A stretch of DNA of 64,000 nt from Aquidulcibacter sp. Lineage in GTDB: Bacteria > Pseudomonadota > Alphaproteobacteria > Caulobacterales > Aquidulcibacteraceae. Numbering within the stretch: the first letter of the stretch is position 1; the number at the start of each line of letters is the position of its first letter. The notes below the pieces were generated by a model, which had not been told where the DNA came from, ran no database searches, and worked only from the letters and a program-made list of their open reading frames with translations. The DNA is taken from NCBI RefSeq assembly GCF_020253525.1, contig NZ_JADCBK010000004.1:52261-116260 (forward strand), given 5' to 3'. The translations under genes were made by a program, and so were the position numbers. Positions 19,299 to 43,118 of this stretch are shown here, in pieces.

Positions 19299-19425
19299 GC
19301 TGCTATCCTTCTACGCACGATTAGCAGAACGCGGCGCACCCGTTTTCAGGGTCCACCGCGCTCTTGGGAAACTGGGAATGGGAATGGGAAAAGTGGTGAT
19401 GCGCTGCTGCGGGTGCGCCACAGGC

Positions 19426-19722
19426 TTATTCGCCAGGATCAACGCCACCATTGAGGCGGGCGCGCAATTCCTTGCCCGCCTTGAAGAAGGGCGCATGCTT
19501 GGCTTCTACTGCCACACCTTCCCCCGTGCGTGGGTTGCGCCCCTGACGAGCCCCGCGCGAGCGCACCGAAAATGCTCCGAACCCGCGCAATTCAACGCGG
19601 TCGCCTCTTTCCAATGCCTTGGTGATCTCTTCCAATACGGTATCGACGACGCGTTCGACATCCCCATGAAATAGATGCGGATTCTCGGTAGCTAATTTAG
19701 CAACAAGTTCAGATCGCAACAT
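19426..19722 (-). CDS. ihfB: Integration host factor beta subunit
   Basis: [27 protein letters not shown]; located downstream of rpsA. Confidence 0.95.
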
Positions 19723-25817: not shown

Positions 25818-25838
25818 CTTAGCCCCAGTTGACGCAGT

Positions 25839-25855
25839 AAAATTGGTATGCACTT
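25839..25855. promoter_or_regulatory. Candidate FadR-type operator (autoregulatory), AAAATTGGTATGCACTT
   Basis: Left half matches the UxuR/ExuR-type AAATTGGTAT; shares a core with the sites at 33668-33862. Confidence 0.55.
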
Positions 25856-26051
25856 GTGGCATGAATCAATTGATTTTGCAATCGGTTCACCCCCCTTGCG
25901 GGCCGGGTCCGCTGCGCGCTGACGCACTTTCTGGCACTCTGTTCAGTACGCGGTCTTACGCAGCCATCGAAAGATTGGAGGGGTGCCTGGTTTTGGCCTA
26001 AGGACCAGTCAGACCCCAACTTGAGCCGTGCGAGGGCGAAGATCAGGAGAG

Positions 26052-26990: not shown

Positions 26991-27009
26991 CGTGTGACCT
27001 CCCAGTCGA

Positions 27010-27765: not shown

Positions 27766-27796
27766 GTCGTTTCCTGCTTCATGATGTTCGGAGGGA

Positions 27797-29074: not shown

Positions 29075-29171
29075 GATTGCACCGCCACAGAAATAGCCGA
29101 TCCCAAAGATCTGCCGTGAGGCTTCCCGGGCCCGGGTTTCCGGCGGCGCGCGACAAAGGGGTATGTTTCGC

Positions 29172-31316
29172 TCATTTTAGAACTATCCTTGCGACTGGGC
29201 CGGCCCAAGACAGTTCATGCCCGGCAAATTGGATGGAGTGGCGCTTCATCGGATCGGGTGCGTGCGCCACAGCGACCGCGACTTTCACCCCTGCCCGCGT
29301 GGTGAGAATGGCGACATCTGCCTCGCCAATGGTTGCAGCCTCGATGGAAGCGATTTGGCTGCGACTGGCCGTGACCCGCTCGCTATCTGGGTCATAGCTG
29401 CCATGGCCCTCAAGGACTCCGGCAAACAAGCTATCGGCCGCACCTTCGAGGCGTTGGATGATCATAGGCTCGCGGCGCAAATTAAAGTTTGGATCGCCTG
29501 CACCGCTTTCGGCCAGGATAACGCTGCTGCCTGTTTGCGGGACCCAGTGCCACGTATGAAACCGGGTTTGATTTTGCCACGTTATGAAGGGCTTCTGCGG
29601 TGTGCTGGCGACACCGTCGACCCATATGTGCTGATAGCCAGCACCTTGGCCGAGAACTGGCCTTACCTCTGTATTGACCTTAAACTGGGGGCCAAGCTCC
29701 ACGATATGGCCCTGATAATGCAGCGGCAGATCATAGCGATGCTGGCTTGTAGACCGCACACGCAGAAGGTCTACCACCACCCGCTTGTCTAATCCGGGAA
29801 CCGCGACCAAGGCGACGGCGCGGGTCATGGTTACGCCCGGATAGGCATTGGCTTCCCGTCCGACCGAAATCGAGAAGTCTTGCGAGGCGCTAAACAGCAC
29901 CTGCTCGCCCGCATGCTCTTCTGCGGGCTCTAGTTTGCCATCAAAATGGCTGCGCCCATCGACCACCAACACATTATGGGCAATCGATTGTTTCGCCCAG
30001 CTTTCGTTTTCAGGAAGGTAACGGCCGCCATATTTGGCCTCGACATTATGGAAGCGCGCGGCGCCATAATCGCTGACAATTTCGCGACCTTCATCGAAAT
30101 AAAGCCAGTTGAGCCGGTCAAAATGGCCATGGCCCATCCCTTGGGACGCGCTTTTGGTAACCAGCAATTGTCCCGTTTCAGAATCGCCAGACCGGATGAG
30201 GGCGACTGCACCTGACTTGCCATCGGCTCCATCGCGCAACAGACGCGAGCCGAAAGGAAATGGTCGTGCCTTTCCGGCCGCGAGATCGGCTGCCACCATC
30301 TTGCCTTCGGGCGAAAGGGCAACCCGTCCTTGCCAGTGTGCGACGGACAAAAGGGCGGGATCGCGCGATTGCGCATAAGCGATGGCAACACTCTGATAGA
30401 GCTCTTCTGTATTGAGGCTCTTTTCTTTCAAGGCATCATTAAAGGGCACAAAATGGCCGCGATAGGTCAAATCAACCGCAGTTTGGACCGTCTTCACAAG
30501 GACGCCGTCGCGCCGCTTGAAGATGCCAACTGCGGGATCATAGCGTTCGATGGAATTGGCAAAGACCATGAAGGGCCACAGCGCATAACGCTGATAATAG
30601 CCCCCTTCGGCATAATAGCCGTCGGGCGACAACAAATCGTCGATCTGTTTTAGAAAGCCAGCCGATCCATCTTTTCGCGATCCTTTTAGGGCGCGGTCGA
30701 CAAGGTCGCGATCGCCCAACACATAGCCCGTCATGCCAACGCCAGCCGTTGCCCAAGTTGCATGATTGTGGATCATATCAAAGGTTTTGACGCTCTCGAC
30801 CGATAGAAAGGTTGCCATCTGACGGAACAGGGGGTCGATGCGCGCGCGGTCCTGTGCCGACAGATCCGCGCGGATTAGTTCATAGCCCTGAATGCCATTC
30901 ACCAGCCAAACAGCATCGTTCAAAACCTGCCAGAATAGCTTGCCATAGCGCTGATCATTAGACCGCGCTGGATGGGGCCCTAGTGTCGGATAAAGTGCGG
31001 CATAGGCCAGCAACATATCGCGCGCATAATCGCGATATCGGCGATCACCTGTAAGTTTATAAAGCTGGCCTGCTTCATAGAGCGCGCGGTAATTGCGCTT
31101 GTGCTGCTCATGGCTTGCGCCGCCGCCCGGGTCCTTTGGCTGGGGTACATAAATCCCCGCCTGCATCATCTCCTCAAGAAAGACACGAGATTTGGCCACT
31201 TCTGTCGCAAACAAGTCCGGCGCAGCTTGGCCCGCTGGCGCAGGCTGGGCGGCACTTGCACCGGGTATGGCGAAGGTGACGGAGGCGAGAAATGCCATGG
31301 CGATTAGATTGCTCAT
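29172..31316 (-). CDS. PL17-type oligoalginate lyase (alginate lyase + heparinase II/III-like domains), exported
   Basis: Signal peptide; HNHATW, GYYAEGGYYQRYA, GMGHGHFD, YLPENESWAKQSIAHN. Confidence 0.92.
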   Translation of the reverse strand: MSNLIAMAFLASVTFAIPGASAAQPAPAGQAAPDLFATEVAKSRVFLEEMMQAGIYVPQPKDPGGGASHEQHKRNYRALYEAGQLYKLTGDRRYRDYARDMLLAYAALYPTLGPHPARSNDQRYGKLFWQVLNDAVWLVNGIQGYELIRADLSAQDRARIDPLFRQMATFLSVESVKTFDMIHNHATWATAGVGMTGYVLGDRDLVDRALKGSRKDGSAGFLKQIDDLLSPDGYYAEGGYYQRYALWPFMVFANSIERYDPAVGIFKRRDGVLVKTVQTAVDLTYRGHFVPFNDALKEKSLNTEELYQSVAIAYAQSRDPALLSVAHWQGRVALSPEGKMVAADLAAGKARPFPFGSRLLRDGADGKSGAVALIRSGDSETGQLLVTKSASQGMGHGHFDRLNWLYFDEGREIVSDYGAARFHNVEAKYGGRYLPENESWAKQSIAHNVLVVDGRSHFDGKLEPAEEHAGEQVLFSASQDFSISVGREANAYPGVTMTRAVALVAVPGLDKRVVVDLLRVRSTSQHRYDLPLHYQGHIVELGPQFKVNTEVRPVLGQGAGYQHIWVDGVASTPQKPFITWQNQTRFHTWHWVPQTGSSVILAESGAGDPNFNLRREPMIIQRLEGAADSLFAGVLEGHGSYDPDSERVTASRSQIASIEAATIGEADVAILTTRAGVKVAVAVAHAPDPMKRHSIQFAGHELSWAGPVARIVLK

Positions 31317-33529
31317 TGGAGGCGGTTGTCCCGAATTTCGGCGCGCAATGGCCCTTTGAAATAAAGTTCCGACACGACGGGGGGTGGCGATGCAGCAAAC
31401 TCATTGTTTGTGATGCGTGTTGAAGGCTCACCCACGCTGTGGATCACCTCTAGTTTGGCGCTGCGGAGGAAGCGGTTTTGAGAGATGCGCGTCACCTGAA
31501 CACCAGAAAGACGCACACCACCGCTCTCTGTGATCTGGCTGTCCAGCAGGCTAAATCGTGGGCCAAATGTGCTCTCGTCCGTGCCTTGACGCAGCACATC
31601 GGCAATCATGCCAACGCGGGTGAGTGACAGCTGTTCGAACTCGATCTCTTCGACAGGATAGAGCCCGGCATTGCCCCGTTCAGAGGTGGCCGCAAGAACC
31701 GCCCCACTTAAGTCCGTGACCTGCGTCTTGGCGATCCGGACTTTTCCGGCAAAAGTCGCCGGGGTTGTTGCGATCAAATCAAATTGCGTTGTATGCGCCA
31801 GATCGAGGAAAAGGCAGTCTTCAATGTCCACGACATAGTTTGTCAGCATGGTGCGGGGTGAAGATCGGATCACAGCATTGCCGACTGCAGAGGGCGCTTC
31901 CTTGCCAGAGATGGTGAGGCCCCGAAGGGTCAAGCTGCCACCCTCTTCCATCACAAATAGCGTCGCCGCGCGAAAGGAGATGTGTGCGCCAGCCCCTGAG
32001 ATCGTCACATCACGGCGCACGGGCAGAGGCTCATCAAGGGTGAATGTGCCTTTGCCAAGCTGCAAAACATCGCCGTCATGCGCGTTGGCAAGCGCTGCAA
32101 CCAGCGCGCCGGAGGTTTGAATCGTGACGGTTCGACTTGGCTTTGGCTGAACCGCTGATTGTGATGCAGGCCGGTACCAAGCAGGACCAACAGCGCTGCG
32201 CTTAGGTGCCACAAGTTGGCGAGACGCACCAAGGTCTGCCATTGCTTGGTTGCGCGGATAAAGGAGCCCATTGGCCCCACGCCGCAGTGCAACGGGCTTT
32301 TGCTCAAACCCAACACCATCCGGCACACTTATATTGGTAACATTGCCCGCAAACTGGATGCCCGTTGTGGGCGCATCGACGCGAAACGGCGCATGCGACA
32401 AATCAGTCACCACAAGATTTTTGGTGACCTTTACCCCCTCGGGCGCGGCAGAACGCTCAGCGCTTGCCCCGGCGCCAAACAGAATGGAGACCGGATTGAC
32501 GAGAGTGTTATTGGCAATTTCGCCACCCACAACTTGATGATAGCGATTGATGACCGAATTGGGCACGCCATTCATGATGGAGAGCGCGGCGGTGAAATTC
32601 CCGCCTGCCAATCCCTCCAAATAATTGTTTCGCACGGTTTGATCGCGATTAATGACCCGGATCCCGCCTGTGTTGGCCTCGCCCATGCCCAGGAAGATGT
32701 TTGATTCCACAAGATTGCCATTGCCATGGCGCAAAACCACAGCACCTTGCGAACGCAAAAACAGATTGCGCCGGATCGTATTGCCGCCTGACTTGATCGA
32801 GATAACCTCTACCTCACCATCACAGCGCTCAAAGATATTGTCTTCAATCACGGTGCCAGAGGGGCTGAGCGATTCCTCGCTCGTGCCAATTCTTAGGGTC
32901 TCGCCGCCATTGGAGCCAAGAACCGGGCGCGGGCCAAAATAATTGTGGTCTAGGCGAATATTGTTGTCGAGCGGCCAGCCGGGCATGCGGATCACCACAA
33001 ACATCGCACCCAGATTCTGCTTGCCTTCAAAATGGGAGTGGTCGAACCGGATATTGCGACCATAGAGCGCAACCCAATGATCTTCTTTGCGACGGTCTGG
33101 ATTGCTGAAGCCGTCGATGACAATGCCTGTTAAGCGCGCATTCTCGGCCCACCGATTGCCAATCCGGGTCACGATGGCGGCTTCGCCCAAAGGCTGGCCC
33201 GAACGGAAGACCAAATCCTTTACAACCAAATGTCGCCCAGCAAGGCGGAGTGCCGACGCGCCAGAGACGATGACTTTACCGGGTGTCATGGCCTTCAAGA
33301 TGATTGGCTTGGCGGCCGTTCCTTGCGCGTCAAACTGGATGTCCACATCGCGCCAATCCCCATTGGCGAGAATGATCTGATCGCCCGGCTGAGCTGCCTT
33401 GATCGCGGCCTGCATCTCTGCAGAACTTCGCACCACGATATCCCGCGCGAGGACCGGCGACCCGAAAGCCATAAGAAAGGCAGCAAGAATGGCAGGATAG
33501 CGGCGCATGGCTATCCCTGGCTCACGCAA
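31313..33529 (-). CDS. PL6 alginate lyase (chondroitinase-B-like beta-helix, two-domain)
   Basis: GSNGGETLRIGTS, EVISIKS, LRHGNGN, NRYHQV; true start may be ATG 33508. Confidence 0.92.
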   Translation of the reverse strand: MREPGIAMRRYPAILAAFLMAFGSPVLARDIVVRSSAEMQAAIKAAQPGDQIILANGDWRDVDIQFDAQGTAAKPIILKAMTPGKVIVSGASALRLAGRHLVVKDLVFRSGQPLGEAAIVTRIGNRWAENARLTGIVIDGFSNPDRRKEDHWVALYGRNIRFDHSHFEGKQNLGAMFVVIRMPGWPLDNNIRLDHNYFGPRPVLGSNGGETLRIGTSEESLSPSGTVIEDNIFERCDGEVEVISIKSGGNTIRRNLFLRSQGAVVLRHGNGNLVESNIFLGMGEANTGGIRVINRDQTVRNNYLEGLAGGNFTAALSIMNGVPNSVINRYHQVVGGEIANNTLVNPVSILFGAGASAERSAAPEGVKVTKNLVVTDLSHAPFRVDAPTTGIQFAGNVTNISVPDGVGFEQKPVALRRGANGLLYPRNQAMADLGASRQLVAPKRSAVGPAWYRPASQSAVQPKPSRTVTIQTSGALVAALANAHDGDVLQLGKGTFTLDEPLPVRRDVTISGAGAHISFRAATLFVMEEGGSLTLRGLTISGKEAPSAVGNAVIRSSPRTMLTNYVVDIEDCLFLDLAHTTQFDLIATTPATFAGKVRIAKTQVTDLSGAVLAATSERGNAGLYPVEEIEFEQLSLTRVGMIADVLRQGTDESTFGPRFSLLDSQITESGGVRLSGVQVTRISQNRFLRSAKLEVIHSVGEPSTRITNNEFAASPPPVVSELYFKGPLRAEIRDNRLQ

Positions 33530-33667
33530 TGGGTGTTGGGGCAGGCCTCATTCCGCATATCCAATGGATCACGGGCAACCTCGCCCCGAATGATCATAGA
33601 CCGCATGTGAAAGCCCCCCACCAGTTCACGAAGATGTAATAAGCATCCGGTCCAATGTGTCAACCAG

Positions 33668-33862
33668 TTATTCATACCAATCTTTTGAAGGTGGCCGACA
33701 TATGGACGCCCCTTAAAGAGCAAGACAGACGATTTTCGTCATTTTACCCATAGATATCTGCCATTTTGCCGTGAATTATCTCCATTTCTGTGGGGAATTG
33801 GGGAATTGCAGGCCTAAATTATATACCAAATTCTCGATAAATTATGCAGATTGGCATGAATT
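33668..33862. promoter_or_regulatory. Divergent PL6/TBDT control region with three candidate FadR-type sites (about 33668-33683, 33816-33832, 33848-33862)
   Basis: Read in one orientation: AGATTGGTATGAATAA, AATTTGGTATATAATTT, AGATTGGCATGAATT; TTGACA follows at 33868-33873. Confidence 0.55.
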
Positions 33863-33931
33863 ATTGGTTGACAATAATCGGTAAGGTGGGCAACGAGCGA
33901 TAAAGGCAAAATTCACGGGGAGGACAATTTC

Positions 33932-36900
33932 ATGTACAGCGGAGCCAAATTTGGCAATCGGAGTCGTTTAAACAGCCGATTGAGCATCGCACTTTTAAGT
34001 GGAACCGCCGCCATCGCGAGCCCCGTGTTTGCGCAAAATGCCACCAGGCCTGCGACACCACCGGTGGCACAAGATGCCGCTCCTGCTAAGGAAGTTGAAC
34101 AAATCGTCGTGGTTGGTATCCGCAGATCGTTGCAGAGCGCCTTGGGCGAAAAGCGCAATGCCGACAGCCTGATCGAAGTCATCAAAGCCGAAGACATCGG
34201 AAAGCTGCCCGACCAAAACCTTGCCGAAGTGTTGGAAAACGTCACGGGCATCCAAATCACCCGCTCCGCCGGTGTTGGCAGTGCGGTCCAAATCCGCGGT
34301 ACAGATGCAAACCGGACCGAGATTAATGGTGTTTCCACGGTGTCGTCCGGCGCCAGTCGGTCTGGCATTAGTTTCGAAGACTTACCCGCCGCACTCATTG
34401 CCTCGGTTGAAGTCACCAAGGTCCCAACCGCTCAAACCATCGAAGGATCGGTCGGGGGTACGATTAACCTGCGCACCATTCGCCCACTCTCGCTCAAAGA
34501 GCCTTTGATTTCGGCGCGAGTCCAATCAGAAACCAGCGACCTTTCGAAATCAACGCTGCCTCGTGTTTCTGCAACCCTGGGCCGGCGCTGGGATACCAAT
34601 ATTGGCGAAATCGGTTTGGTCATCAGCGGCAGTCATGCTCGCCAAGATGTTGCCTCTTTCAGCCCTCGCGTGGATCGCGACGCCATCGTGCTGCCGGGAT
34701 CAGGCCCAAGCGCCCAATCCTTCCCATTTCTTCGCATTCAGTTCTTTGATCAGGAATTGATCAATTACGAATATGACACCAAGAATTATACCGGCGCTTT
34801 TGAATGGAAGCCCAATGATCGGCTCAAATTCTATTTTGACGCCACCCTCAACGACCAGCAGCGAACCCAAGAAAGTACGCGCGTCCAGATTTCTGGTACC
34901 GCGTCGGGTACGGTTGTGAATGCCACGAACAACACATCTTTTGAGACGGTCAATTGGGGTTCCCTCGATGGCCCGAATGGACCGATTAATCTCGGCACCG
35001 TTCAAGCCGCGTTGACCGGCACGATTGGCGTTGGTGTTGAAACCAACGGCACCATCGACCCCAACTTGCGCACCTCAAGCAATACCGGTGCACGCCTAAC
35101 CGAAAGCCGGGTGTTTGCCTTTGGTAGCGAATGGGAGCCAACAGACCGGCTCAAAGTTCGGGCAGAGGGGTCGATTTCGACGTCAAAGTCTGACTTTCCA
35201 AACTTTTCAACCACGCTGGATTTCATCAACCCTCTGGGACCACAGCCTTCTTTCGGTCGCTCGATTGATAACGGGGTTCCCACAGAATTTGATTTGCGCG
35301 GCGGTATCCTGCAATTTGGCCTGAACGCGGCCAGCCCGATTTCACCCACATCGGCCATGATGCTTAATCCAGCCAATTATCGGCTTCAGCAAGTCACCCA
35401 AGGGGCCAATAAAACCGATAATGAGGAAAAGGCAGCGCGCTTTGATCTGAGCTATGACGCATCCGACAGGATCAAATACGTCAAATCCGTCGACTTCGGC
35501 TATCGTTGGAACCGCAATACGGCCATCAACAACGTCTTCACCAACAATGTCACATTGACGAACCCAACGACCCATTGGAACCGTCCGTCGGGTGATCGTT
35601 TTGCCAGCATCCTGGTTCCAGGGCCCAGCAATTTTAATGATGCCGACGGACGCCGTCTCTATTTCCCGAACTTCTTGATCATCGACGGAGCCCTTTCGTT
35701 CAGTAATCCCACCCAAGTGTTGGATGCGCTCAACACGGCCATTACTGCAGCCAATGCCGCGCGCACCGTCGGCGGCGCAATCGCGCCTTTGACCGTGCCG
35801 ACAGAGTCCGCATCCGGCTTCTTCACAATCAATGAAACGACCAATGCCGCCTATCTTCAGGCCAATTTCGAAACCGAGATTGCGGGCAAATCGGTGACGG
35901 GGAATGCCGGGGTTCGTTATTTGGACACCAAGATTTCCTCGATCGGCAATAATGTGTCCAACAATACCTCTGGCGGCCAAATCGTGGCCGACAGCTCTTA
36001 CAGCTTCTGGCTGCCCCGCCTCAATGTCGTGACAGAGGCAGCCGACCGCTTCTTCATTCGCGCAGGTATCGCTCGCGATATTCGGCGGCCCGACTTTGAC
36101 AGAATGTCGACATCGGTTTCGTTTGGCACCTCGCCCAATACCCCCGTTCCCGTTGGCAATCCCGATCTGGTTCCAGAAGCTGTCTGGTCCTATGACCTCT
36201 CAGCAGAATGGTATTTTGCGCCTTCCAGCTTGATCAGCGTCGGTTTCTTCCACAAAAGCCGGACCAATCTGTTCGCGCAACGCCAAGAAGATCCCGCACC
36301 GAACTTGGTTGGATCGCAGCTGAATATCGATATCACGCCTCCTTGCGAAGGCGGGGGTATCTACAACCCGATTGCCCAACGCGGCATCAACAACCCAACC
36401 CCCGGCACGGGCATCTGCGTTCCCCTCTCTTCGACCTTCAATGTCAGTGGCTCTACCACCCAGACCGGGGTCGAAATTGCGTTCCAGCATGACCTTTCCG
36501 CCTATGAAGAGACCTTGGGTTTTGCGTCGGGCTTTGGCTTTATTGGCAATTTCACCTATCAGAAGACGGGTGGTTCAGCGAAGGAATATCGGGCCGCAGA
36601 TGGTCCACGCAACGTCTTCACCCTCTTGGGCTTCCCCAACTCAAAAGACCGAATCACGCTCACCAATCTGTCGAACTATGCCTATAATGCGACGGTGTTT
36701 TACGACAAATACGGCTTGAACGCCCGCGTCCGCTATACGTGGCGATCCAGCTATGCGACGGATGATTCCTTCTTCTTCGGGCTTCCACGCATCAATGGCG
36801 ACCGAGGCCAGCTGAATGCCAGTATCAATTACGACATCACCGACAACATCAATATCGGCATCGAAGGGATCAATCTCTTACGGTCGGACCAACGGCAGTA

Positions 36901-36982
36901 TTGCGTCAACAATAATGCTTTGCTTTGCTTCCAAGGCCTCACCGATCGCCGCTTGACTGCCGGTCTCAATGTGAAATTCTAG
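33932..36982 (+). CDS. TonB-dependent receptor (oligosaccharide uptake)
   Basis: VVVGIR TonB box, AEDIGKLPDQNLAE plug, C-terminal GLNVKF; GGAGG RBS. Confidence 0.96.
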   Translation: MYSGAKFGNRSRLNSRLSIALLSGTAAIASPVFAQNATRPATPPVAQDAAPAKEVEQIVVVGIRRSLQSALGEKRNADSLIEVIKAEDIGKLPDQNLAEVLENVTGIQITRSAGVGSAVQIRGTDANRTEINGVSTVSSGASRSGISFEDLPAALIASVEVTKVPTAQTIEGSVGGTINLRTIRPLSLKEPLISARVQSETSDLSKSTLPRVSATLGRRWDTNIGEIGLVISGSHARQDVASFSPRVDRDAIVLPGSGPSAQSFPFLRIQFFDQELINYEYDTKNYTGAFEWKPNDRLKFYFDATLNDQQRTQESTRVQISGTASGTVVNATNNTSFETVNWGSLDGPNGPINLGTVQAALTGTIGVGVETNGTIDPNLRTSSNTGARLTESRVFAFGSEWEPTDRLKVRAEGSISTSKSDFPNFSTTLDFINPLGPQPSFGRSIDNGVPTEFDLRGGILQFGLNAASPISPTSAMMLNPANYRLQQVTQGANKTDNEEKAARFDLSYDASDRIKYVKSVDFGYRWNRNTAINNVFTNNVTLTNPTTHWNRPSGDRFASILVPGPSNFNDADGRRLYFPNFLIIDGALSFSNPTQVLDALNTAITAANAARTVGGAIAPLTVPTESASGFFTINETTNAAYLQANFETEIAGKSVTGNAGVRYLDTKISSIGNNVSNNTSGGQIVADSSYSFWLPRLNVVTEAADRFFIRAGIARDIRRPDFDRMSTSVSFGTSPNTPVPVGNPDLVPEAVWSYDLSAEWYFAPSSLISVGFFHKSRTNLFAQRQEDPAPNLVGSQLNIDITPPCEGGGIYNPIAQRGINNPTPGTGICVPLSSTFNVSGSTTQTGVEIAFQHDLSAYEETLGFASGFGFIGNFTYQKTGGSAKEYRAADGPRNVFTLLGFPNSKDRITLTNLSNYAYNATVFYDKYGLNARVRYTWRSSYATDDSFFFGLPRINGDRGQLNASINYDITDNINIGIEGINLLRSDQRQYCVNNNALLCFQGLTDRRLTAGLNVKF

Positions 36983-37004
36983 ATCAGCACCAAACAGGGC
37001 TTTG

Positions 37005-37039
37005 GCCGGGGGTAGCAAGCCGCAACCCCCGGCTTTTTT
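37005..37039 (+). terminator. Rho-independent terminator of the TBDT
   Basis: GCCGGGGGT/ACCCCCGGC stem followed by T6. Confidence 0.85.
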
Positions 37040-37183
37040 GTGCCCATCGTCCCGCAACCCCACCACATCCAAGGGCGCAGACTACGAGGATCAAGCCTGG
37101 GGCACCTTCCCACCAGACTTCAAGGCGGGTGACACCCGTGCAACCGACTGCGCGTCGCGAAAATTTAGTATATCAAATTCAAA

Positions 37184-37197
37184 TCTAATATATTAGA
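37184..37197. promoter_or_regulatory. Perfect palindrome TCTAATATATTAGA, candidate GntR operator
   Basis: 14-bp palindrome abutting the ATG at 37198; related TTAGTATATCAA at 37165-37176. Confidence 0.6.
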
Positions 37198-38004
37198 ATG
37201 CAAAGCATGGAATCCCTGACCTTTACCGTACGACCCCTGTCCGACGTGCTGAAAGCCGAAACGCTTGGCACGGAGGGTTCGCTTGTTGACCGAATTTACG
37301 CCGTCCTGCGCCGGGCCATTATTGACCTGTCGCTGCCGCCCGATCTGCCGCTTGTCGAGCAAGAAGTTGCTGCCGCCTTGCAGACCAGCAAGACGCCAGT
37401 ACGCGAAGCAATTATCCGCTTAGCGCGTGAGGGGCTGGTCGAGGTTAAGGCAAAGAGTGGCAGCTATGTGACGCCCATCAGTATTGAGCGCTATTTGGAA
37501 GCCTGTTTTGTGCGGATGCAGTTGGAGGTGGGCTGCGTTCGCAGATTAGCGTCGCGGCGGATATCCCCGGCCGACCAAGTGTTGATGCGGGCCTTTATTG
37601 CTGAGCAAGAAGCTGCCTTTGCCGCCAATGATGATGCACGATTTTTTGCCGCCGATGAGGCGATGCACCACGGCCTGTTTGAACTGGCAGGCTTGCCCGG
37701 TGTCTGGCGGACGATGAACCTCGCCAAGGCTGAGCTGGACCGCGTGCGCCATTTGAAAAGGCGCTTCGGCAATCGTCAGCGTCAACTTGTCATCGAGGAG
37801 CACAAGGCCCTCATTGAAGCCATCATCGCAGGCGATCCTGCCGCCGCCGAACGGGCGTTGCTCGACAATATTGGTGCTGTCGAAGAAGAAATTGCGGCGC
37901 TTGCACGTCATCCAGGACTGTTGCGCACCATCGAAGACCTGAACGCCCTTGTCGCCATCGAACATCGTCTACGCGGCGGGAAAACCTCTAGAAAGGCCAG
38001 CTGA
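37198..38004 (+). CDS. GntR-family FCD regulator (RspR/YdfH-like)
   Basis: IYAVLRRAII, SKTPVREA HTH; FVRMQLE, DEAMH, EEH motifs. Confidence 0.9.
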   Translation: MQSMESLTFTVRPLSDVLKAETLGTEGSLVDRIYAVLRRAIIDLSLPPDLPLVEQEVAAALQTSKTPVREAIIRLAREGLVEVKAKSGSYVTPISIERYLEACFVRMQLEVGCVRRLASRRISPADQVLMRAFIAEQEAAFAANDDARFFAADEAMHHGLFELAGLPGVWRTMNLAKAELDRVRHLKRRFGNRQRQLVIEEHKALIEAIIAGDPAAAERALLDNIGAVEEEIAALARHPGLLRTIEDLNALVAIEHRLRGGKTSRKAS

Positions 38005-39830
38005 TGGATCTCAACATCGTCATTATTGGCGTCTATTTTATGTTCCTACTGGCCATCGGCTGGATGTTTCGGAGCATGACCAGCAACACAAGCGACTATT
38101 TCCGCGGCGGCGGCAATGTGTTGTGGTGGATGGTGGGGGCTTGTGCCTTCATGACCCAGTTTTCCGCTTGGACGTTCACAGGGGCGGCCTCAAAAGCCTA
38201 TAATGACGGCTTTGCGATTGTATTCCTCTTTTTGGCAAATGCGGTCGGCTATTTCTTCAATTATCTCTATTTCGCCCCCCGTTTCCGGCAAATGCGGGTG
38301 GTCACCGTGGTCGATGCATTACGTTTGCGCTTTGGGAAGACGAATGAGCAGGTTTTCGCTTGGGTGAGCATGGTCACCACCGTCCTCTCCGCCGGCATTG
38401 CCATCAATGCGCTCGCCGTGATCGCTTCGTCTTTGGGCGGATTTGGGATGGAAGTGACAATCATTACAACCGGGCTTGTGATCATTGTCTTGTCGGTTGT
38501 GGGTGGGGCTTGGGCCGCCATCGCGGCCGATTTCTTCCAGATGATGATTGTGATGGTCGTGACCGTTTCTTGCGCGGCAGTCGCGCTCTATCTGGGCGGC
38601 GGCCCGCAGCAAATCATCGACAAATTCCCTACCGACTTCATCAGTGGCACCGAGCTCAACTATATGAGCATCTTCTACATCTGGTGCTTCAGTATCTTCT
38701 TAAAGCAGATTGGGTTGACCAATAATCTGCTCTATTCCTATCGCTATTTGACGGCGAAGGATTCCAATCACGCGCGCAAAGGGGCCATACTTGCCTGTGT
38801 GCTGATGTTGATCTGCCCGCTCCTGTGGTTTTTGCCGCCCTGGTATATGGCTGGCGCGGGGGTCGATTTGCAGACGATGTTCCCCGAACAAGGGGCAAAC
38901 TATTCCGAAGCCTCCTATCTCGCCTTCGTCAAACTCTATATGCCCATTGGCATGGTCGGGCTTTTGCTGGCGGCCATGTTTTCAGCGACCATGAGTTCGA
39001 TTGACACTGGGCTAAATCGCAACGCGGGCATTTTCGTCAAAAACTTCCTCCAGCCCGTACTCTTTCCGAAGATGAGCGAAGCCGCTCTCATGCATGTATC
39101 GAGAACCGCATCCATTGTTTTTGGGGTGCTGATTGTTTCGGTGGCACTCTTTATCAACTCCCTGAAAGAGCTCAGCCTTTTCGACGCGATGCTCTATCTC
39201 AGCGCGCTTCTGGGCTTTCCACAAATCATCCCAAGCTTCCTCGGCTTCTTCATTCGCCGCACGCCAGACTGGGCCGCATGGGCAACCATTCTGGTTGGTG
39301 CGATCGTATCATGGGTCGTCGGTGGCCTGATGGAGCCGGCCCATATTGAGCGTCTCTTTGGTCTGACGACACCGTTTACAGATCGGGAGTGGACCGATCT
39401 GGTCGTCGCGATCAGCCTGATTGCCCATGTCGTCATCACGGGCGGGTTTTTCTGCCTAACCACCCTTTTCTACAAAGGTCTGCCGCCAGAGCGCGAGGAA
39501 GCCGTCACGCGCTTCTTCACCAATCGGGACCGACCCCTGATCAAGGCAGACGGGGACCATGTGCACCTTGACAACCACCAGCGCGTCCTGATCGGCCGCA
39601 CGGTCGGGATTGCGGGTATCTTAGTTATGGCCATGATGGCCCTGCCCAACCAGCTATGGGGACGGGTGATCCTGTTGATCTGCGGTGCCGGTGTGCTTGG
39701 GGTCGGGGCCCTCTTGGTCCTCTCGACGGTGCCAGTGCCTGAAGGTCAAGATCGGCCAGAGGCTGATGCCGCCGATGACAAGGACCTAGCTACACCCGCC
39801 ACGGCCACATCACAGGATTCTGCGCGATGA
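38004..39830 (+). CDS. Sodium:solute symporter resembling the Vibrio oligoalginate transporter ToaA
   Basis: SDYFRGGG..LWWMVG..AFMTQFSAWTFTGAA; many TM helices; 1-bp overlap with the GntR stop. Confidence 0.82.
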   Translation: MDLNIVIIGVYFMFLLAIGWMFRSMTSNTSDYFRGGGNVLWWMVGACAFMTQFSAWTFTGAASKAYNDGFAIVFLFLANAVGYFFNYLYFAPRFRQMRVVTVVDALRLRFGKTNEQVFAWVSMVTTVLSAGIAINALAVIASSLGGFGMEVTIITTGLVIIVLSVVGGAWAAIAADFFQMMIVMVVTVSCAAVALYLGGGPQQIIDKFPTDFISGTELNYMSIFYIWCFSIFLKQIGLTNNLLYSYRYLTAKDSNHARKGAILACVLMLICPLLWFLPPWYMAGAGVDLQTMFPEQGANYSEASYLAFVKLYMPIGMVGLLLAAMFSATMSSIDTGLNRNAGIFVKNFLQPVLFPKMSEAALMHVSRTASIVFGVLIVSVALFINSLKELSLFDAMLYLSALLGFPQIIPSFLGFFIRRTPDWAAWATILVGAIVSWVVGGLMEPAHIERLFGLTTPFTDREWTDLVVAISLIAHVVITGGFFCLTTLFYKGLPPEREEAVTRFFTNRDRPLIKADGDHVHLDNHQRVLIGRTVGIAGILVMAMMALPNQLWGRVILLICGAGVLGVGALLVLSTVPVPEGQDRPEADAADDKDLATPATATSQDSAR

Positions 39831-41050
39831 AAATCACCGACGCCAAAGTTTTTGTCGGGGGCCCCGGCAAAAACTACGTAACCCTCAAAATATACACCGA
39901 CCAAGGCATTTATGGCCTAGGGGATGCTACCCTCAACAATCGGGAAACTTTGCCCGCCAAATATTTAGAGGATTATTTGATCCCGTGCCTGATCGGGATG
40001 GACCCGCGGCGCAGCGAAGATATCTGGCAATATTTCTATCGCAGTACCTATTTCCGGCGCGGACCCATTACGATGTCAGCCATTGGAGCCATCGACATGG
40101 CTCTGTGGGACATTAAGGGAAAGATCGCGGGCCTTCCGGTCTATGATTTGCTGGGCGGCAAGTCACGCGATGGCGCGCTTGTCTATGCGCATGCTACCGG
40201 CAGCGATCTTGATCAGCTTATTGATTCCATGTCCTATTATCGAGAACAGGGCTATACGGCGATCCGCGTTCAATGCGGCATTCCGGGTATGCCAACGCCT
40301 GGTTATGGCATCGCTGGCAAGGACGAAGATGCCCGCCATTATATCACAAAATATGGCGCCCTGCCCGACTTGGAGATTTGGGATACAGGCAAATATCTGC
40401 GCTATATGCCCAAGGTGTTTGAGCGGCTTCGTGCTGAGTTTGGGGACGAACTAAAGATCCTGCATGATGTCCATCACCGCCTCCTGCCTCGTGAGGCTGC
40501 AGCTTTCGCGAAAGAAGTCGAACCATTTGATCTCTACTGGCTTGAGGACCCAACCCCAGCCGACGACCAGACCAGCCTGCGCCTGATCCGCCAGCACAGC
40601 ACGGTTCCCATCGCCATAGGCGAGGTGTTCAACTCGCTGTGGGATTGCCGCCAGATGATCGAAGAAGAATTGATCGACTTTATCCGTATCGCAGCCACCT
40701 ATGGCGGTGGCATCACACATGTGCGACGCATTGTCGATCTGGCTGCGATCCATCACGTCCGAACTGGCTTTCACGGCGCGCCCAGCCATTCGCCAATCTC
40801 GATGGCGGCGCAAGCACATCTCAATGCTTGGGCCCCGAACTTCGGGATACAGGAATATCTGGTGCTGGGGACGGAAGCTTGCGACGCACTATTCCCCTCC
40901 GACCATCATTATGCGGAGGGTGAGTTCCATGTCAGCGACGCGCCGGGACTAGGTGTCGATTTCGATGAAAAGGAGGCCGCGAAATATGCGTATTCACGTG
41001 GCTATCACCCCGTCGTGCGCCTGACAGACGGGACGATGTGGAATTATTGA
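39827..41050 (+). CDS. Enolase-superfamily sugar-acid dehydratase, ManD/RspA subgroup (divergent)
   Basis: LHDVHH, WLEDP, IGEVF metal ligands; DMALWDIKGK; PNFGIQEY; RL.DGTMWNY C-terminus. Confidence 0.9.
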   Translation: MKITDAKVFVGGPGKNYVTLKIYTDQGIYGLGDATLNNRETLPAKYLEDYLIPCLIGMDPRRSEDIWQYFYRSTYFRRGPITMSAIGAIDMALWDIKGKIAGLPVYDLLGGKSRDGALVYAHATGSDLDQLIDSMSYYREQGYTAIRVQCGIPGMPTPGYGIAGKDEDARHYITKYGALPDLEIWDTGKYLRYMPKVFERLRAEFGDELKILHDVHHRLLPREAAAFAKEVEPFDLYWLEDPTPADDQTSLRLIRQHSTVPIAIGEVFNSLWDCRQMIEEELIDFIRIAATYGGGITHVRRIVDLAAIHHVRTGFHGAPSHSPISMAAQAHLNAWAPNFGIQEYLVLGTEACDALFPSDHHYAEGEFHVSDAPGLGVDFDEKEAAKYAYSRGYHPVVRLTDGTMWNY

Positions 41051-41078
41051 TAGGCCCGCAAGACAGAGAGGTGCCGCC

Positions 41079-41792
41079 ATGTTGAGCCCTGAAACCAAAG
41101 CAACCCTTGAACGCACCAGCACCGCCAGCCTTGCGACCATGCTGTTTAAGCGGGGCCTGCGCAACCAATTCATTCAAGGTGTGCAACGCTTGGGTGGCCG
41201 CCGTCCGCGCATGGTTGGCCCAGCCTTTACGCTTCGCTACATCCCCGCGCGCGAAGACTTAAACCCGATCGAGGTGTTTCGCGACCCCAATCATCCCCAG
41301 CGTCGGGCTGTCGAGGAGGTGCCGACGGGCCACATCCTGATCATGGACTGCCGACAAGACGCAAGCGCCGCCTCAGCCGGATCAATCCTCCTCACGCGCT
41401 TACAGGTGCGCGGGTGTGGCGGGGTGGTGACTGATGGCGGTCTGCGCGATGCCGATGAAATCTCTGACCTCACCATACCCGCTTTTTGTGCGCGTCCTTC
41501 CGCGCCAACCAATCTTACCAAACACCAAGCCGTCGACATCAATGTGCCCATTGGCTGTGGTGGGGTTGCGGTTTTTCCGGGCGATATTGCGGTTGGAGAT
41601 GGCGACGGGGTTGTGATCATTCCGGCCCATTTAGCCGAAGAAATCGCCGCAGAAGCCCGAGGCATGGAGGCGTATGAGGCTTGGGTAGTTGAGCAGGTCA
41701 AGGCTGGCGCATCGATCATCGGCCTCTACCCGATGAATGAAGAAACCCGCGCGCGTTACGAGGCCGAACACCCAACTGAAAACAAACGCTAG
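41079..41792 (+). CDS. RraA/HMG-aldolase-like protein
   Basis: GPAFTLRY, GVVTDGGLRD, CGGVAVFPGDIAVGDGDGVV. Confidence 0.85.
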   Translation: MLSPETKATLERTSTASLATMLFKRGLRNQFIQGVQRLGGRRPRMVGPAFTLRYIPAREDLNPIEVFRDPNHPQRRAVEEVPTGHILIMDCRQDASAASAGSILLTRLQVRGCGGVVTDGGLRDADEISDLTIPAFCARPSAPTNLTKHQAVDINVPIGCGGVAVFPGDIAVGDGDGVVIIPAHLAEEIAAEARGMEAYEAWVVEQVKAGASIIGLYPMNEETRARYEAEHPTENKR

Positions 41793-41864
41793 CGCTTCAG
41801 GCCCTAAGGCAGATAACATCTGAGCCATCAGCAAAGATCAAACATGTGCTGGCTGGAGGTTTGC

Positions 41865-43118
41865 GTGGTCGACCGCATAATGGCTATCTCTCGACGCGGC
41901 TCTCTGGGCGTTGCAGCTGCCGGTACCCTTGGTCTTGGAGTACCCACCGCTGCCGCCACGGCCGAATCAGGGGTCGTTCCGGGCCTTGAAGTCCTGTTAG
42001 GGCCAAAGCGGGCGCTGTTGGCGGGCAAGCGGGTGGGTCTCATCACCAATCCAACGGGCGTGACGCGCGGGCTTGAAAGCGCGGTTGATCTGATGGCGCA
42101 AGCGACCGACTTTAAGCTTGCCGCGCTGTTTGGACCCGAACATGGGGTGCGCGGCGATGCGCAAGCTGGCGCTGCTGTTGCCGATCACCTCGATGCGCGC
42201 ACGGGCTTGGCCGCCTATAGCCTTTATGGTGCCACCCGCAAGCCGACGCCTGCCATGCTGGCAGGTCTCGATGTGTTGGTCTTTGACATTCAAGACATTG
42301 GTGCCCGCTATTACACCTATCCTTGGACGCTGGGCCTGGTCATGCAAGCTGCTCGCGAAGCCGGGATTGGCGTCATTGTGGCCGACCGGCCCAATCCAAT
42401 TGGTGGGGACAAGGTTGAAGGCCCCGTGCTGGACCCCGCTTTGGCAAGCTTTGTTGGGGCCTATCCCATCCCGGTGCGCCATGGCCTGACGATGGGCGAG
42501 CTGGCCCTGATGATGAATAAGGACTTCGCCATAGGCTGTGACTTGACCGTGGTGACGTGCACCACCTGGCGACGCGGGAAGGATTTTAGTCAGACAGGCC
42601 TGCCATGGGTGCCGCCTTCGCCCAATATGCCCACTTTGGATACGGCCTTCCTGTATCCGGGAACCTGCCTGATCGAGGGGACAAATCTGTCGGAAGGGCG
42701 CGGCACAGCCAAGCCATTTGAGCTGATTGGCGCGCCCTTCATCGATGCGCCTGCGCTGGCAGAGCGGCTAAACCAGCGCAAATTGGCCGGGGTACATTTC
42801 CGCCCCGCATATTTCACGCCGACCTTCTCAAAGCATCAAGGCCAGCTTTGCGCGGGCGTACAAATCCACCTGTTGGACCGCGCGAGCATGGCACCCGTGG
42901 ACGTGGGCCTCACACTCCTGCTCGAGGTCGCAAGCCTGTATGGCCAAGATTTTTCCTTCTTGCCCGGCAATCCGCCGTTTTTCGACAGGCTGGCAGGATT
43001 GTCCTGGCTGCGCGATGCAATTGTGGCGGGGGAAAGTCTCGAAAGCATCCACGCACGCTGGCAGCCTGAACTTGAGGCTTTCAAGCGCAAACGATTGGAT
43101 TGGCTCTTATATCGCTAA
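41865..43118 (+). CDS. namZ: Exo-beta-N-acetylmuramidase (DUF1343), Tat signal
   Basis: SRRGSL twin-arginine; ITNPTG, FGPEHG, FDIQDIG, DRPNP, SEGRGT; GTG 41865 follows GGAGG. Confidence 0.88.
   Translation: MVDRIMAISRRGSLGVAAAGTLGLGVPTAAATAESGVVPGLEVLLGPKRALLAGKRVGLITNPTGVTRGLESAVDLMAQATDFKLAALFGPEHGVRGDAQAGAAVADHLDARTGLAAYSLYGATRKPTPAMLAGLDVLVFDIQDIGARYYTYPWTLGLVMQAAREAGIGVIVADRPNPIGGDKVEGPVLDPALASFVGAYPIPVRHGLTMGELALMMNKDFAIGCDLTVVTCTTWRRGKDFSQTGLPWVPPSPNMPTLDTAFLYPGTCLIEGTNLSEGRGTAKPFELIGAPFIDAPALAERLNQRKLAGVHFRPAYFTPTFSKHQGQLCAGVQIHLLDRASMAPVDVGLTLLLEVASLYGQDFSFLPGNPPFFDRLAGLSWLRDAIVAGESLESIHARWQPELEAFKRKRLDWLLYR

Follow-up and report, generated by a model that had tools for sequence, protein, structure and literature searches.

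The closest described counterpart of the operon considered here is the oxidative DEH pathway of Flavobacterium sp. UMI-01, whose enzymes are FlRed, FlDet and FlDeg (Nishiyama et al. 2021, PMC8563752). FlDet, whose gene is alginate-induced and adjoins an exo-lyase gene, turns KDGR into alpha-ketoglutaric semialdehyde (alpha-KGSA) and displayed no detectable activity on KDG, KDPG, DEH or 4-hydroxy-2-oxoglutarate (PMC8563752). A comparable logic, leading from uronate to aldarate or lactone and then, through a dehydratase of the enolase superfamily or of another type, to a keto-deoxy-hexarate, alpha-KGSA and alpha-ketoglutarate, underlies the oxidative D-glucuronate/D-galacturonate pathway of Agrobacterium and Pseudomonas (Udh, Gli, Gci or GudD/GarD, KdgD and alpha-KGSA dehydrogenase). 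Uncharacterised operons of Rhizobiales and Rhodobacterales combine a TRAP/TTT transporter with an IlvD/Edd dehydratase, a FlDet-like protein and an alpha-KGSA dehydrogenase. The ManD subgroup of the enolase superfamily, for its part, is a classic example of how unreliable annotation can be: many of its members have low activity or none, and no known role. Wichelecki and colleagues reportedly found, in 2014, that the activities of the subgroup consist in the dehydration of D-mannonate and/or D-gluconate, and to our knowledge all members with measured activity use these substrates and never aldarates.

The window analysed here, a 64-kb stretch of DNA from a freshwater, Aquidulcibacter-like alphaproteobacterium of the Caulobacteraceae, carries a four-gene operon that resembles the Flavobacterium sp. 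UMI-01 system in that its FlDet ortholog is equal in length to the published enzyme (237 aa), an exo-type alginate lyase is encoded close by and the locus also has an SDR of the DEH-reductase type. It differs from that system in its host, in lacking a FlDeg-type dehydrogenase nearby, and in the make-up of its operon, in which the FlDet-like gene is joined by those of a symporter, a ManD-type dehydratase and a dedicated GntR regulator, all three foreign to the published pathway. Relative to the Agrobacterium/Pseudomonas pathway, the keto-deoxy-hexarate would here be the erythro isomer, a ManD-subgroup dehydratase stands in place of GlucD or Gci, and an RraA-fold decarboxylating dehydratase in place of the DHDPS-family KdgD. 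The Rhizobiales/Rhodobacterales operons share with it a FlDet-like gene directly downstream of the dehydratase gene, but differ from it in the superfamily of the dehydratase, in the type of transporter and in the absence of polysaccharide lyases nearby. A first-pass annotation had taken the operon for an undescribed branch of alginate catabolism; the FlDet branch itself was described in 2021 (PMC8563752), and the ManD/FlDet combination was not found in the literature searched.

Results

Organization and regulation of the operon

The four plus-strand ORFs identified in the window [Table 1] are tightly packed, with a 1-bp overlap between the regulator and symporter genes (gcTGAtg), a 4-bp overlap between the symporter and ManD-like genes (cgATGAaa) and a 28-bp gap between the ManD-like and FlDet-like genes. 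The ORFs and junction sequences thus bear out the position and overlaps claimed in the first-pass annotation for a four-gene operon with its own regulator, and its placement after the TonB-dependent transporter (TBDT) gene of the alginate locus was likewise correct. Metatranscriptome contigs span, at low depth, the symporter/ManD and ManD/FlDet-like junctions. The TBDT gene is oriented divergently from the PL6 and PL17 lyase genes, which are followed by MFS, SDR, KdgK and second GntR genes; the genes from 25050 to 29074 constitute the canonical reductive DEH route. Both lyases carry signal peptides and are periplasmic; the locus lacks a cytoplasmic oligoalginate lyase. A terminator-like hairpin with a T-run, at 37017-37035 downstream of the TBDT gene, sets the transcript of that gene apart from the operon.

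Table 1. Features of the operon and of the surrounding alginate locus, in window coordinates
Feature	Position	Strand	Basis
Second GntR regulator (context)	25050-25862	-	
KdgK (context)	26052-27050	-	
SDR, probable DEH reductase/oxidase (context)	27010-27765	-	
MFS transporter (context)	27797-29074	-	
PL17, Alg17c-like exo-oligoalginate lyase, signal peptide	29172-31316	-	E 3.5e-205
PL6, AlyGC-like exo-lyase, signal peptide	31313-33529	-	E 4e-169
TBDT, outer-membrane transporter, alginate locus context	33932-36982	+	Profile matches
Terminator-like hairpin, AAGCCG-loop-CGGCTT plus T-run, just 3' of the TBDT stop	37017-37045	+	Sequence
Second AT-rich operator-like site, TTTAGTATATCAAATT	37164-37179	.	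By-eye comparison of five intergenic regions
Perfect 14-bp palindrome TCTAATATATTAGA, putative GntR/FCD operator	37184-37197	.	Sequence
GntR/FCD (FadR-type) transcriptional regulator	37198-38004	+	GntR 57 bits, FCD 79 bits (Pfam)
Sodium:solute symporter, SSS family, 608 aa	38004-39830	+	SSF PF00474 106 bits
Enolase-superfamily dehydratase, ManD subgroup, divergent clade	39827-41050	+	MR_MLE_N/C 91 and 164 bits
FlDet ortholog, RraA fold, 237 aa	41079-41792	+	RraA-like PF03737 108 bits

The regulator combines wHTH and FCD domains with a conserved palindrome at its own promoter, as befits a FadR-type repressor. This palindrome, TCTAATATATTAGA, occurs once in the window; its core, TAATATATTA, has 21 matches in 2.8 Mb of loci, nearly all beside these regulators, and is kept beside homologous regulators in 18 other loci; its conservation next to orthologous regulators extends over Gamma- and Alphaproteobacteria. 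Because the palindrome fills positions 37184-37197, the true start of the regulator is probably the second ATG, at 37207. By eye, the reverse complement of the second operator-like site, TTTAGTATATCAAATT, contains TTGATATACT, as do the related loci L002 and L007-L009. The IlvD/Edd-type loci, among them the Rhizobiales/Rhodobacterales operons, encode GntR/FCD homologues 29-40% identical to the operon regulator with the same TAATATATTA core; regulator and core precede IlvD/Edd/FlDet-like operons in Alphaproteobacteria and the ManD/FlDet module in Woeseiaceae and Halioglobus.

A probable uronate symporter

The symporter is 47-61% identical to symporters of Vibrio, Photobacterium, Burkholderia and Ilyobacter, and all five relatives with annotated records (47-59% identical) are encoded within or next to clusters of oligo-uronate lyase genes. 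It shares with the Vibrio ToaA/B/C oligoalginate symporters the SSS family and a length of about 600 aa; the Vibrio and Photobacterium proteins compared are 51-61% identical to it, and the annotated Vibrio genes (51-59%) adjoin alginate or heparinase-type lyases, KdgM and KdgR. The ToaA-type role previously proposed is thus plausible by way of these relatives, and the protein is probably an (oligo)uronate importer. In contrast to the ToaA/B/C setting, both lyases of the present locus are periplasmic and a cytoplasmic oligoalginate lyase is absent, such that the cargo may be monomers rather than oligomers.

The last gene of the operon encodes an apparent FlDet ortholog

The product of the last gene matches FlDet of Flavobacterium sp. 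UMI-01 with 59% identity over 228 of its 237 residues (E 6e-91) and scores 338 bits against NF006093 (PRK08245), whose cut-off is 208. These matches argue strongly for its assignment to FlDet, and the protein is probably a 2-keto-3-deoxy-D-glucarate dehydratase/decarboxylase yielding alpha-KGSA. It had initially been taken for an RraA-like aldolase, a designation that we abandon: its scores lie far below the cut-offs for the HMG/CHA class II pyruvate aldolases (90 bits versus 179 for NF006731; 83 versus 304 for TIGR02798), and the HMG/CHA aldolase 3noj matches it weakly and over a partial stretch (E 1e-15).

Alignment of 87 members of the family revealed 74 of 237 columns conserved at 97% or more, and a single, conservative column sets the lyase- or ManD-linked members apart from those linked to IlvD/Edd. 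Judging from these sequences, the family looks isofunctional, although its common substrate could differ from KDGR, as the published tests of FlDet left out 2-keto-3-deoxy-pentonates. FlDet-like genes are found in at least 596 species, mostly soil and rhizosphere bacteria without lyases close by. Of the 80 genome loci that the FlDet-like scan returned, 42 contain an IlvD/Edd sugar-acid dehydratase gene, and wherever such a locus was inspected this gene immediately preceded the FlDet-like one on the same strand. Since the ManD-like gene occupies this same upstream position in the present operon, the dehydratase may be what feeds the FlDet-like enzyme. About 19 of these loci also harbor a FlDeg-type alpha-KGSA dehydrogenase gene, often directly downstream; no homolog of it was found anywhere in the 64-kb window.

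A divergent clade of ManD-like dehydratases

The ManD-like enzyme scores 646.6 bits against the NCBIfam ManD equivalog (cut-off 550) and shares fold, length and catalytic set with NaManD (2QJJ), E. coli RspA (4IL2) and C. salexigens ManD, although its identity to them is only 54-56%. The Mg ligands D210/E236/E262, the R147-Y159 dyad, H212 and R283 (roles from PMC4570537) are kept by the window protein and throughout its 12-member clade; H312 and E339 are conserved in the window protein as well. The clade nevertheless stands apart, with 73-91% identity internally versus 54-57% to all other ManDs. Comparing its 12 members at the sequence level with 77 other ManDs, including NaManD, EcRspA and PcManD, uncovered about 40 clade-specific substitutions, 36 of which fall at positions at least 95% conserved in the 77, seven of them strictly invariant. 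They include G38N, W76F, E169I, P170T, D316S, L317H and W402Y, each at a position whose residue is conserved in the 77 others (G38, W76 and W402 invariantly). Asp316 and Glu169 are thereby lost; positions 317 and 389 have become His, and position 218 has become Arg. The clade also has a remodelled lid loop in the 150-180s and a one-residue insertion following E339-Y340. A hand count revealed no clear enrichment of substitutions near the catalytic residues along the sequence. All seven of the named residues, conserved in ManDs that dehydrate D-mannonate or D-gluconate, are replaced throughout the clade; by its sequence, the enzyme is not an ordinary ManD.

Genomic partners of the clade

Unlike those of NaManD, RspA and C. 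salexigens ManD, the genomic partners of the clade enzymes are FlDet-like proteins, GFO/IDH/MocA oxidoreductases and lyases rather than uxaC and uxuB. PL6/PL17-type or heparinase-type lyases are encoded within 10 kb in six of the ten clade loci with usable flanks, which supports the proposed linkage to alginate lyases. In the window, L001, L002, L008 and L009, the module is located within or next to PL6/PL17 loci, whereas no lyase lies within 10 kb of the clade ManD in L007, L095 and L097. In L094, the clade ManD lies near a heparinase-type lyase and an ABC transporter, with no obvious oxidoreductase or FlDet nearby (by eye and tblastn). A GFO/IDH/MocA oxidoreductase directly adjoins the clade ManD in L093, L095 and L097, the FlDet-like gene in L002, L006, L008 and L009, and an ordinary ManD in L164. 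UxuA is encoded near PL17 in L002, alongside the clade ManD, and together with a UxuB-like gene in L164. The 64-kb window contains no GFO homolog and no uxaC, uxuB or uxuA, and Eda was not found in it.

Discussion

We tentatively favor, at somewhat short of an even chance, a reading in which the operon, under its own regulation, serves as an accessory to an alginate utilisation locus built on periplasmic exo-lyases and channels uronate carbon oxidatively to alpha-ketoglutarate. The symporter would import alginate-derived uronates, as monomers or short oligomers, and an oxidoreductase would then oxidise C1; this could be the GFO/IDH/MocA enzyme in the sister loci and, in the present one, whose operon lacks it, the locus SDR or the product of a gene elsewhere. 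C1 oxidation of M gives D-mannarate and that of G gives D-glucarate; DEH would be converted directly to KDGR. The divergent ManD-like enzyme would act on the hexarate, or on its lactone, removing water at C2/C3 to give 2-keto-3-deoxy-D-erythro-hexarate (KDGR), which the FlDet ortholog would dehydrate and decarboxylate to alpha-KGSA, and a dehydrogenase encoded elsewhere would complete the conversion to alpha-ketoglutarate. The GntR/FCD protein, bound to the palindrome, would keep the operon repressed until an acid of the pathway builds up. The weak link of the oxidative reading is the substrate of the ManD-like enzyme, which we infer to make the substrate of FlDet from an oxidised uronate, D-mannarate or D-glucarate. 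Against the reading count the ManD equivalog cut-off that this enzyme passes, the ordinary ManD found beside the same GFO enzyme in L164, and the lack in the operon of a uronate/DEH dehydrogenase, a lactonase and an alpha-KGSA dehydrogenase. Flux through the hexarate step would, moreover, be small, as degradation by lyases gives very few saturated monomers.

The partners of the clade, FlDet-like and GFO/IDH/MocA proteins, are no less compatible with an oxidative route than with a reductive one. In the latter, D-mannuronate and L-guluronate would be reduced at C1, the ManD-like enzyme would form KDG for KdgK and Eda, and the FlDet ortholog would work separately on DEH-derived KDGR, being merely co-regulated. 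The underlying chemistry (D-mannuronate to D-mannonate, L-guluronate to D-gluconate) was correctly stated in the first-pass annotation, and the activities ascribed to the ManD subgroup match exactly both reduction products. The equivalog assignment with its full catalytic set and the KdgK of the locus speak for this route as well, as do the UxuA and UxuB-like genes of L002 and L164, which make D-mannonate an intermediate in related loci; the GFO enzymes beside clade ManDs and the L164 ManD could be the missing reductase. Yet the clade replaces residues conserved in ManDs acting on D-mannonate and D-gluconate, a second mannonate dehydratase would be redundant where UxuA is present (L002), neither operon nor window encodes a reductase, and KDG is no substrate of FlDet. 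Reductive salvage also leaves unexplained why a dehydratase gene precedes the FlDet-like gene under a shared regulator and operator, and we deem it unlikely. Alternatively, the ManD-like enzyme could abstract H5 and eliminate the 4-OH of saturated mannuronate or guluronate to give the unsaturated monomer, or DEH, without redox chemistry, the DEH then passing by reduction to KDG or by oxidation to KDGR, on which the FlDet ortholog would act. Open-chain D-mannuronate may be viewed as 6-oxo-D-mannonate, and L-guluronate as 6-oxo-D-gluconate, so that only the distal pocket would have to change; no missing enzyme need be invoked in the window, an order of ManD, GFO and FlDet would explain all three adjacencies, and L094 has a lyase and an ABC transporter without obvious oxidoreductase or FlDet. 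However, the clade seems to have lost acidic residues and gained basic ones, which suits an additional carboxylate better than an uncharged aldehyde or hemiacetal terminus. Uronates, furthermore, are nearly all cyclic in solution, and we know of no precedent for a direct uronate dehydratase in the enolase superfamily; this reading strikes us as decidedly improbable.

The operon might also be a generic sugar-acid operon, for instance for the use of free environmental hexarates or pentonates, and have no role in alginate catabolism, lying next to the alginate genes by virtue of a shared transferred segment. The wide distribution of FlDet-like genes away from lyases, the three clade loci in which none was found within 10 kb, the operon's own regulator and the terminator between it and the TBDT gene are consistent with this view. 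The recurrence of the module in or beside PL6/PL17 loci, the heparinase-type lyase of L094, the alginate induction of FlDet beside an exo-lyase gene and the position of annotated symporter relatives in uronate-oligosaccharide clusters all argue against it and render it improbable. Least credible is a class II pyruvate aldolase acting on KDG or a related keto-deoxy acid in lieu of Eda, which the RraA/HMG-CHA aldolase fold with its GG-x-RD motif and the absence of Eda from the window might suggest; besides the weak profile and structure matches, the kinship to an enzyme inactive on KDG, KDPG and 4-hydroxy-2-oxoglutarate and the pairing of FlDet-like genes with alpha-KGSA dehydrogenase in about 19 loci make this very improbable.

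Returning to the oxidative reading, the clade might, more speculatively, comprise dehydratases of D-mannarate, D-glucarate (= L-gularate) or their lactones which, together with a GFO/IDH/MocA uronate dehydrogenase and FlDet, would form a complete, unrecognised route from saturated alginate monomers to alpha-ketoglutarate, the same logic being widespread; this we regard as possible. In a subgroup as poorly annotated as ManD, a clade whose pocket is remodelled and with which a FlDet-like protein, a GFO oxidoreductase and a uronate symporter recur as partners offers a concrete, testable substrate hypothesis. The oxidative DEH branch has so far been shown in one Flavobacterium only; the finding of its conserved key enzyme inside proteobacterial alginate loci suggests that it is general, which matters for how carbon and redox are budgeted in alginate turnover and for the engineering of strains that convert alginate to products. 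Through the shared regulator and operator, the module is further tied to a type of uncharacterised operon that occurs in several dozen species at least and probably in hundreds. If the proposed route is true, the FlDet-centred logic, regulator and operator would represent a widespread, unannotated aldarate pathway, found across hundreds of species of Proteobacteria, in which an IlvD/Edd dehydratase takes the position of ManD.

Organization of the operon and of the alginate locus

The junctions of the four-gene operon (gcTGAtg and cgATGAaa) bear out the 1-bp overlap, 4-bp overlap and 28-bp gap described in the first-pass annotation. Low-depth metatranscriptome contigs span the symporter/ManD and ManD/FlDet-like junctions, which is weak evidence because of possible DNA carry-over. 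On the 5' side of the operon lies a TonB-dependent transporter gene, with a terminator-like hairpin at its 3' side, and, divergent from this gene, genes encoding PL6 and PL17 lyases, an MFS transporter, an SDR, KdgK and a second GntR regulator; the flanks of the locus are housekeeping genes. Given that the PL17 is Alg17c-like (E 3.5e-205), the PL6 AlyGC-like (E 4e-169), and that both carry signal peptides, the alginate assignment is sound and depolymerization is periplasmic. The lyases of the locus are of the exo type only. Its canonical reductive genes, SDR and KdgK, are ordinary. No KdgF, Eda or endo-lyase was found anywhere in the 64-kb window, and searches of the window for a GFO/IDH/MocA oxidoreductase (GFO), an FlDeg-type alpha-ketoglutaric semialdehyde (alpha-KGSA) dehydrogenase, IlvD/Edd and UxuA returned only two unrelated ALDHs.

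The start of the NamZ gene that follows the operon is likely further downstream (MAISRRGSLGV, Tat-like signal). The junction between the FlDet-like gene and NamZ is spanned by one contig labelled as RNA (41721-41871); NamZ was dropped as a fifth operon gene, the adjacency being conserved in no related locus.

Features of the window and of related loci (L handles; each locus has its own coordinates)
Locus	Feature	Coordinates	Orientation or position	Support
Window	GntR+FCD regulator	37198-38004	co-directional with other three	Pfam/NCBIfam
Window	SSS symporter	38004-39830	co-directional	Pfam/NCBIfam
Window	Enolase-superfamily protein, ManD equivalog	39827-41050	co-directional	646.6 bits, cut-off 550 (NCBIfam)
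Window	RraA-fold protein, subfamily NF006093	41079-41792	co-directional	338 bits, cut-off 208
Window	NamZ-family exo-beta-N-acetylmuramidase	41844-43118	after operon	
Window	Alginate locus	25050-41792		
Window	Unrelated ALDHs	11547-12974; 2983-4452		
L002	GFO/second SSS cassette	10734-14481		
L008/L009	GFO/second SSS cassette	10715-13626		
L006	GFO/second SSS cassette	1207-4164		
L164	GFO/second SSS cassette	10383-14134		
L164	Nramp-type transporter region	14331-19484		
L002	Nramp-type transporter region	16796-19300		
L005	Nramp-type transporter region	10990-12147		
L013 and similar	FlDet-like gene of compact operon	about 10001-10700		
L030, L044	SDR, KdgK homolog, FlDet-like	~8076-10700		
L083	SDR, KdgK homolog, FlDet-like	8212-11687		
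L017	FlDet-like/TTT cluster	9947-17157		
L077	FlDet-like/TTT cluster	9911-15536		

The RraA-fold protein as an FlDet ortholog

The RraA-fold protein, previously read as an aldolase, has the same 237-aa length as FlDet from Flavobacterium sp. UMI-01, itself a member of the RraA family (Nishiyama et al. 2021, PMC8563752), and shares 59% identity with it over 228 residues (BLASTP, E 6e-91; FlDet sequence as given in Supplementary Fig. 8 there). [quoted passage not shown] This match, together with scores far under the cut-offs of the HMG/CHA aldolase models, leaves the aldolase reading unsupported, and it was discarded. Whatever the role of the ManD-like enzyme, assignment of the window protein to FlDet is probable. 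Oxidative processing of DEH, including the FlDet step, is already known, and this branch of alginate catabolism has a published description (PMC8563752). No follow-up work on FlDet was found in the literature.

FlDet-like relatives were detected in at least 596 species (one genome per species), and neighbours were clustered for the best 80 loci. Of these 80, 42 encode an IlvD/Edd-family sugar-acid dehydratase, for which the strongest matches among solved structures are 8ej0 (E 3e-176) and L-arabinonate dehydratase (E about 1e-171); in all of the 42 that were inspected, its gene immediately precedes the FlDet-like gene and is read in the same direction. Regulators of the GntR/FCD type that cluster with the one of the window occur in 34 of the 80, and an FlDeg-type dehydrogenase, searched for with the FlDeg sequence, in about 19, often directly downstream; TRAP, TTT or ABC transporters are also among the neighbours. 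Three Bacteroidota loci (L014, L041, L045) have the FlDet-like gene beside PL6/PL17 without any dehydratase. Of the 237 alignment columns, 74 show 97% or greater conservation across 87 FlDet-like sequences, and a single conservative column sets lyase- or ManD-linked members apart from IlvD/Edd-linked ones; FlDet itself is nearer to the IlvD/Edd-linked set (66%) than to the window protein (57% in the same alignment, 59% by BLASTP). The family thus aligned looks isofunctional, the simplest reading being that upstream dehydratases of whatever fold make the FlDet substrate.

A compact operon recurring in Rhizobiales and Rhodobacterales (L013, L016, L028, L029, L047, L050, L053, L054, L078 and others) resembles an as yet unannotated route of the Weimberg or aldarate type in which an RraA-fold enzyme replaces KdgD, KdaD or XylX. 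Three alphaproteobacterial loci (L030, L044, L083) carry, directly upstream of the FlDet-like gene, a KdgK homolog and an SDR 53-58% identical to the putative DEH reductase of the window, with an Eda-like ORF just downstream of the FlDet-like gene in L083, so that both DEH branches, the reductive and the oxidative, appear to be encoded in a single operon. Clusters of Billgrantia/Halomonas and Marinomonas (L017, L077), in which genes for a TTT transporter and an alpha-KGSA dehydrogenase come after the FlDet-like gene, with an additional SDR in L017 and a dehydratase in neither, may serve to take up a keto-deoxy acid or DEH-like compound.

A divergent ManD clade

The ManD-like protein shares only 54-56% of its residues with NaManD (2QJJ), E. 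coli RspA (4IL2) and the Pectobacterium enzyme (4E4F). Scanning metagenomes with it yielded six loci at 73-77% identity, the next best reaching at most 57%; from this gap, these six and L001, L002, L007, L008, L009 and the window form a 12-member clade. All catalytic residues, with roles as given in PMC4570537, are retained in the ManD-like protein (N37, R39, R147, Y159, D210, H212, E236, E262, R283, H312, E339); the ManD literature found gave catalytic residues only, and none for substrate contact. About 40 residues are replaced in the clade, 36 of them at least 95% conserved in 77 other ManDs and seven strictly invariant. Replacements include R15K, F17Y, G38N, W76F, E169I, P170T, I218R, H288Y, D316S, L317H, M341L, L389H and W402Y; the lid loop (150-180s) is remodelled, and E339-Y340 is followed by a one-residue insertion. 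Several of these changes flank catalytic residues in sequence, among them the loss of acidic Glu169 and Asp316 and the gain of basic Arg218, His317 and His389 (sequence positions). By hand count, about 20 of 39 substitutions fall no more than 7 residues from a catalytic position or inside the lid loop, where ~38% would be expected, an enrichment along the sequence that is not convincing.

Six clade loci combine the FlDet-like gene, symporter and regulator. Genome neighbourhoods uphold the anticipated linkage to alginate lyases: of ten loci whose flanks were usable, six have uronate lyases near the clade ManD gene. Antisense artefacts among the ORFs of high-GC loci (L097, L028, L070) were disregarded. 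A GFO gene directly adjoins the clade ManD gene in L093, L095 and L097, and the same GFO type lies directly beside the FlDet-like gene in L002, L006, L008 and L009. GFO and a second SSS symporter form a conserved cassette beside an FlDet-like gene or a ManD, to which L002 and L164 add a secreted protein of 275-282 aa that matches no Pfam family; the window lacks this cassette. L164 has an ordinary ManD that also adjoins this GFO, as well as consecutive genes for UxuA, a mannose-6-phosphate-isomerase-like cupin and a UxuB-like dehydrogenase, which could constitute an isomerase route for saturated mannuronate. UxuA coexists with the clade ManD in L002. Nramp-type metal transporters sit beside UxuA or the FlDet-like gene in three loci.

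Regulator, symporter and origin of the module

Immediately 5' of the regulator, a perfect palindrome of 14 bp, TCTAATATATTAGA, has its last base next to the annotated start, which makes the ATG at 37207 the probable true start. The palindrome core, TAATATATTA, occurs once in the window, in the divergent regulator/FlDet-like intergenic regions of L002-L004 and L006-L009, and beside homologous regulators in 11 more loci (ten Alphaproteobacteria and one Achromobacter, L070); nearly all of the 21 matches in 2.8 Mb of loci are at such regulator positions. This recurrence points to a conserved regulon of regulator, putative operator and FlDet-like gene, within which one dehydratase (ManD clade or IlvD/Edd) has taken the place of the other, as has one transporter type (SSS or TRAP/TTT).

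SSS proteins from Vibrio, Photobacterium, Burkholderia and Ilyobacter share 47-61% identity with the symporter. Its top match (61%, Vibrio sp. THAF190c) is in a record without annotation; each of five relatives in annotated records (47-59%) is encoded in or beside a uronate-type cluster holding some of heparinase II/III and DUF4962 lyases, PL7/alginate-lyase-family proteins, KdgM, KdgR, KdgF-like cupins and oligogalacturonate lyase. These clusters make a ToaA-type (oligo)uronate cargo plausible, as the first-pass annotation had suggested, the comparison resting on Vibrio plasmid and chromid homologs as a proxy for ToaA rather than on ToaA itself. Since both window lyases are secreted and the locus holds no cytoplasmic lyase, monomers are a possible cargo.

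The host is a freshwater Caulobacteraceae (Aquidulcibacter-like), and metagenomes from lakes, freshwater and aquaculture also contain the operon DNA. Genes of L001, L002 and L007-L009, from marine-sediment Gammaproteobacteria (Woeseiaceae, Halioglobus), match the module at 73-91% identity, these groups being its closest relatives outside the genus (FlDet-like 75-82%, ManD 73-80%); FlDet-like proteins of other Alphaproteobacteria are only 60-70% identical to that of the window, a pattern suggestive of inter-class horizontal transfer.

Possible roles of the ManD-like enzyme

We tentatively favor, at somewhat less than even odds, an oxidative, sequential route in which D-mannuronate and L-guluronate would be oxidized to D-mannarate and D-glucarate, the ManD-like enzyme would form erythro-KDGR by dehydrating the hexarate, and the FlDet ortholog would turn KDGR into alpha-KGSA. 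Such a route, for which the Udh-Gci/GudD-KdgD pathway is a precedent, accounts for the conserved dehydratase-then-FlDet-like order, the common regulator and operator, the pairwise GFO/ManD/FlDet-like adjacencies and the apparent charge shift. A dehydrogenase for the uronate step was not identified in the window, and we know of no ManD with aldarate activity.

The reductive salvage originally proposed, in which the uronates are reduced to mannonate and gluconate and the ManD-like enzyme makes KDG, agrees with ManD family membership and matches known ManD activities exactly, but we consider it unlikely: conserved ManD residues are replaced in the clade, the route is redundant with UxuA in L002, and the FlDet-like protein is left a bystander. 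Less probable still is direct dehydration of saturated uronates to unsaturated monomer/DEH, which leaves no step missing in the window but is, to our knowledge, without precedent. The remaining probability falls to an unrelated sugar-acid operon and other readings. Literature searches turned up nothing on a mannuronate reductase, dehydrogenase or isomerase, nor on D-mannarate catabolism.

No description was found in the literature of the divergent ManD clade, of its coupling to FlDet-like, GFO and oligo-uronate-type symporter genes, or of a common GntR operator tying the module to the widespread dehydratase/FlDet-like/alpha-KGSA-dehydrogenase operon. Rather than a demonstrated new pathway, the module is a good lead for enzymology.
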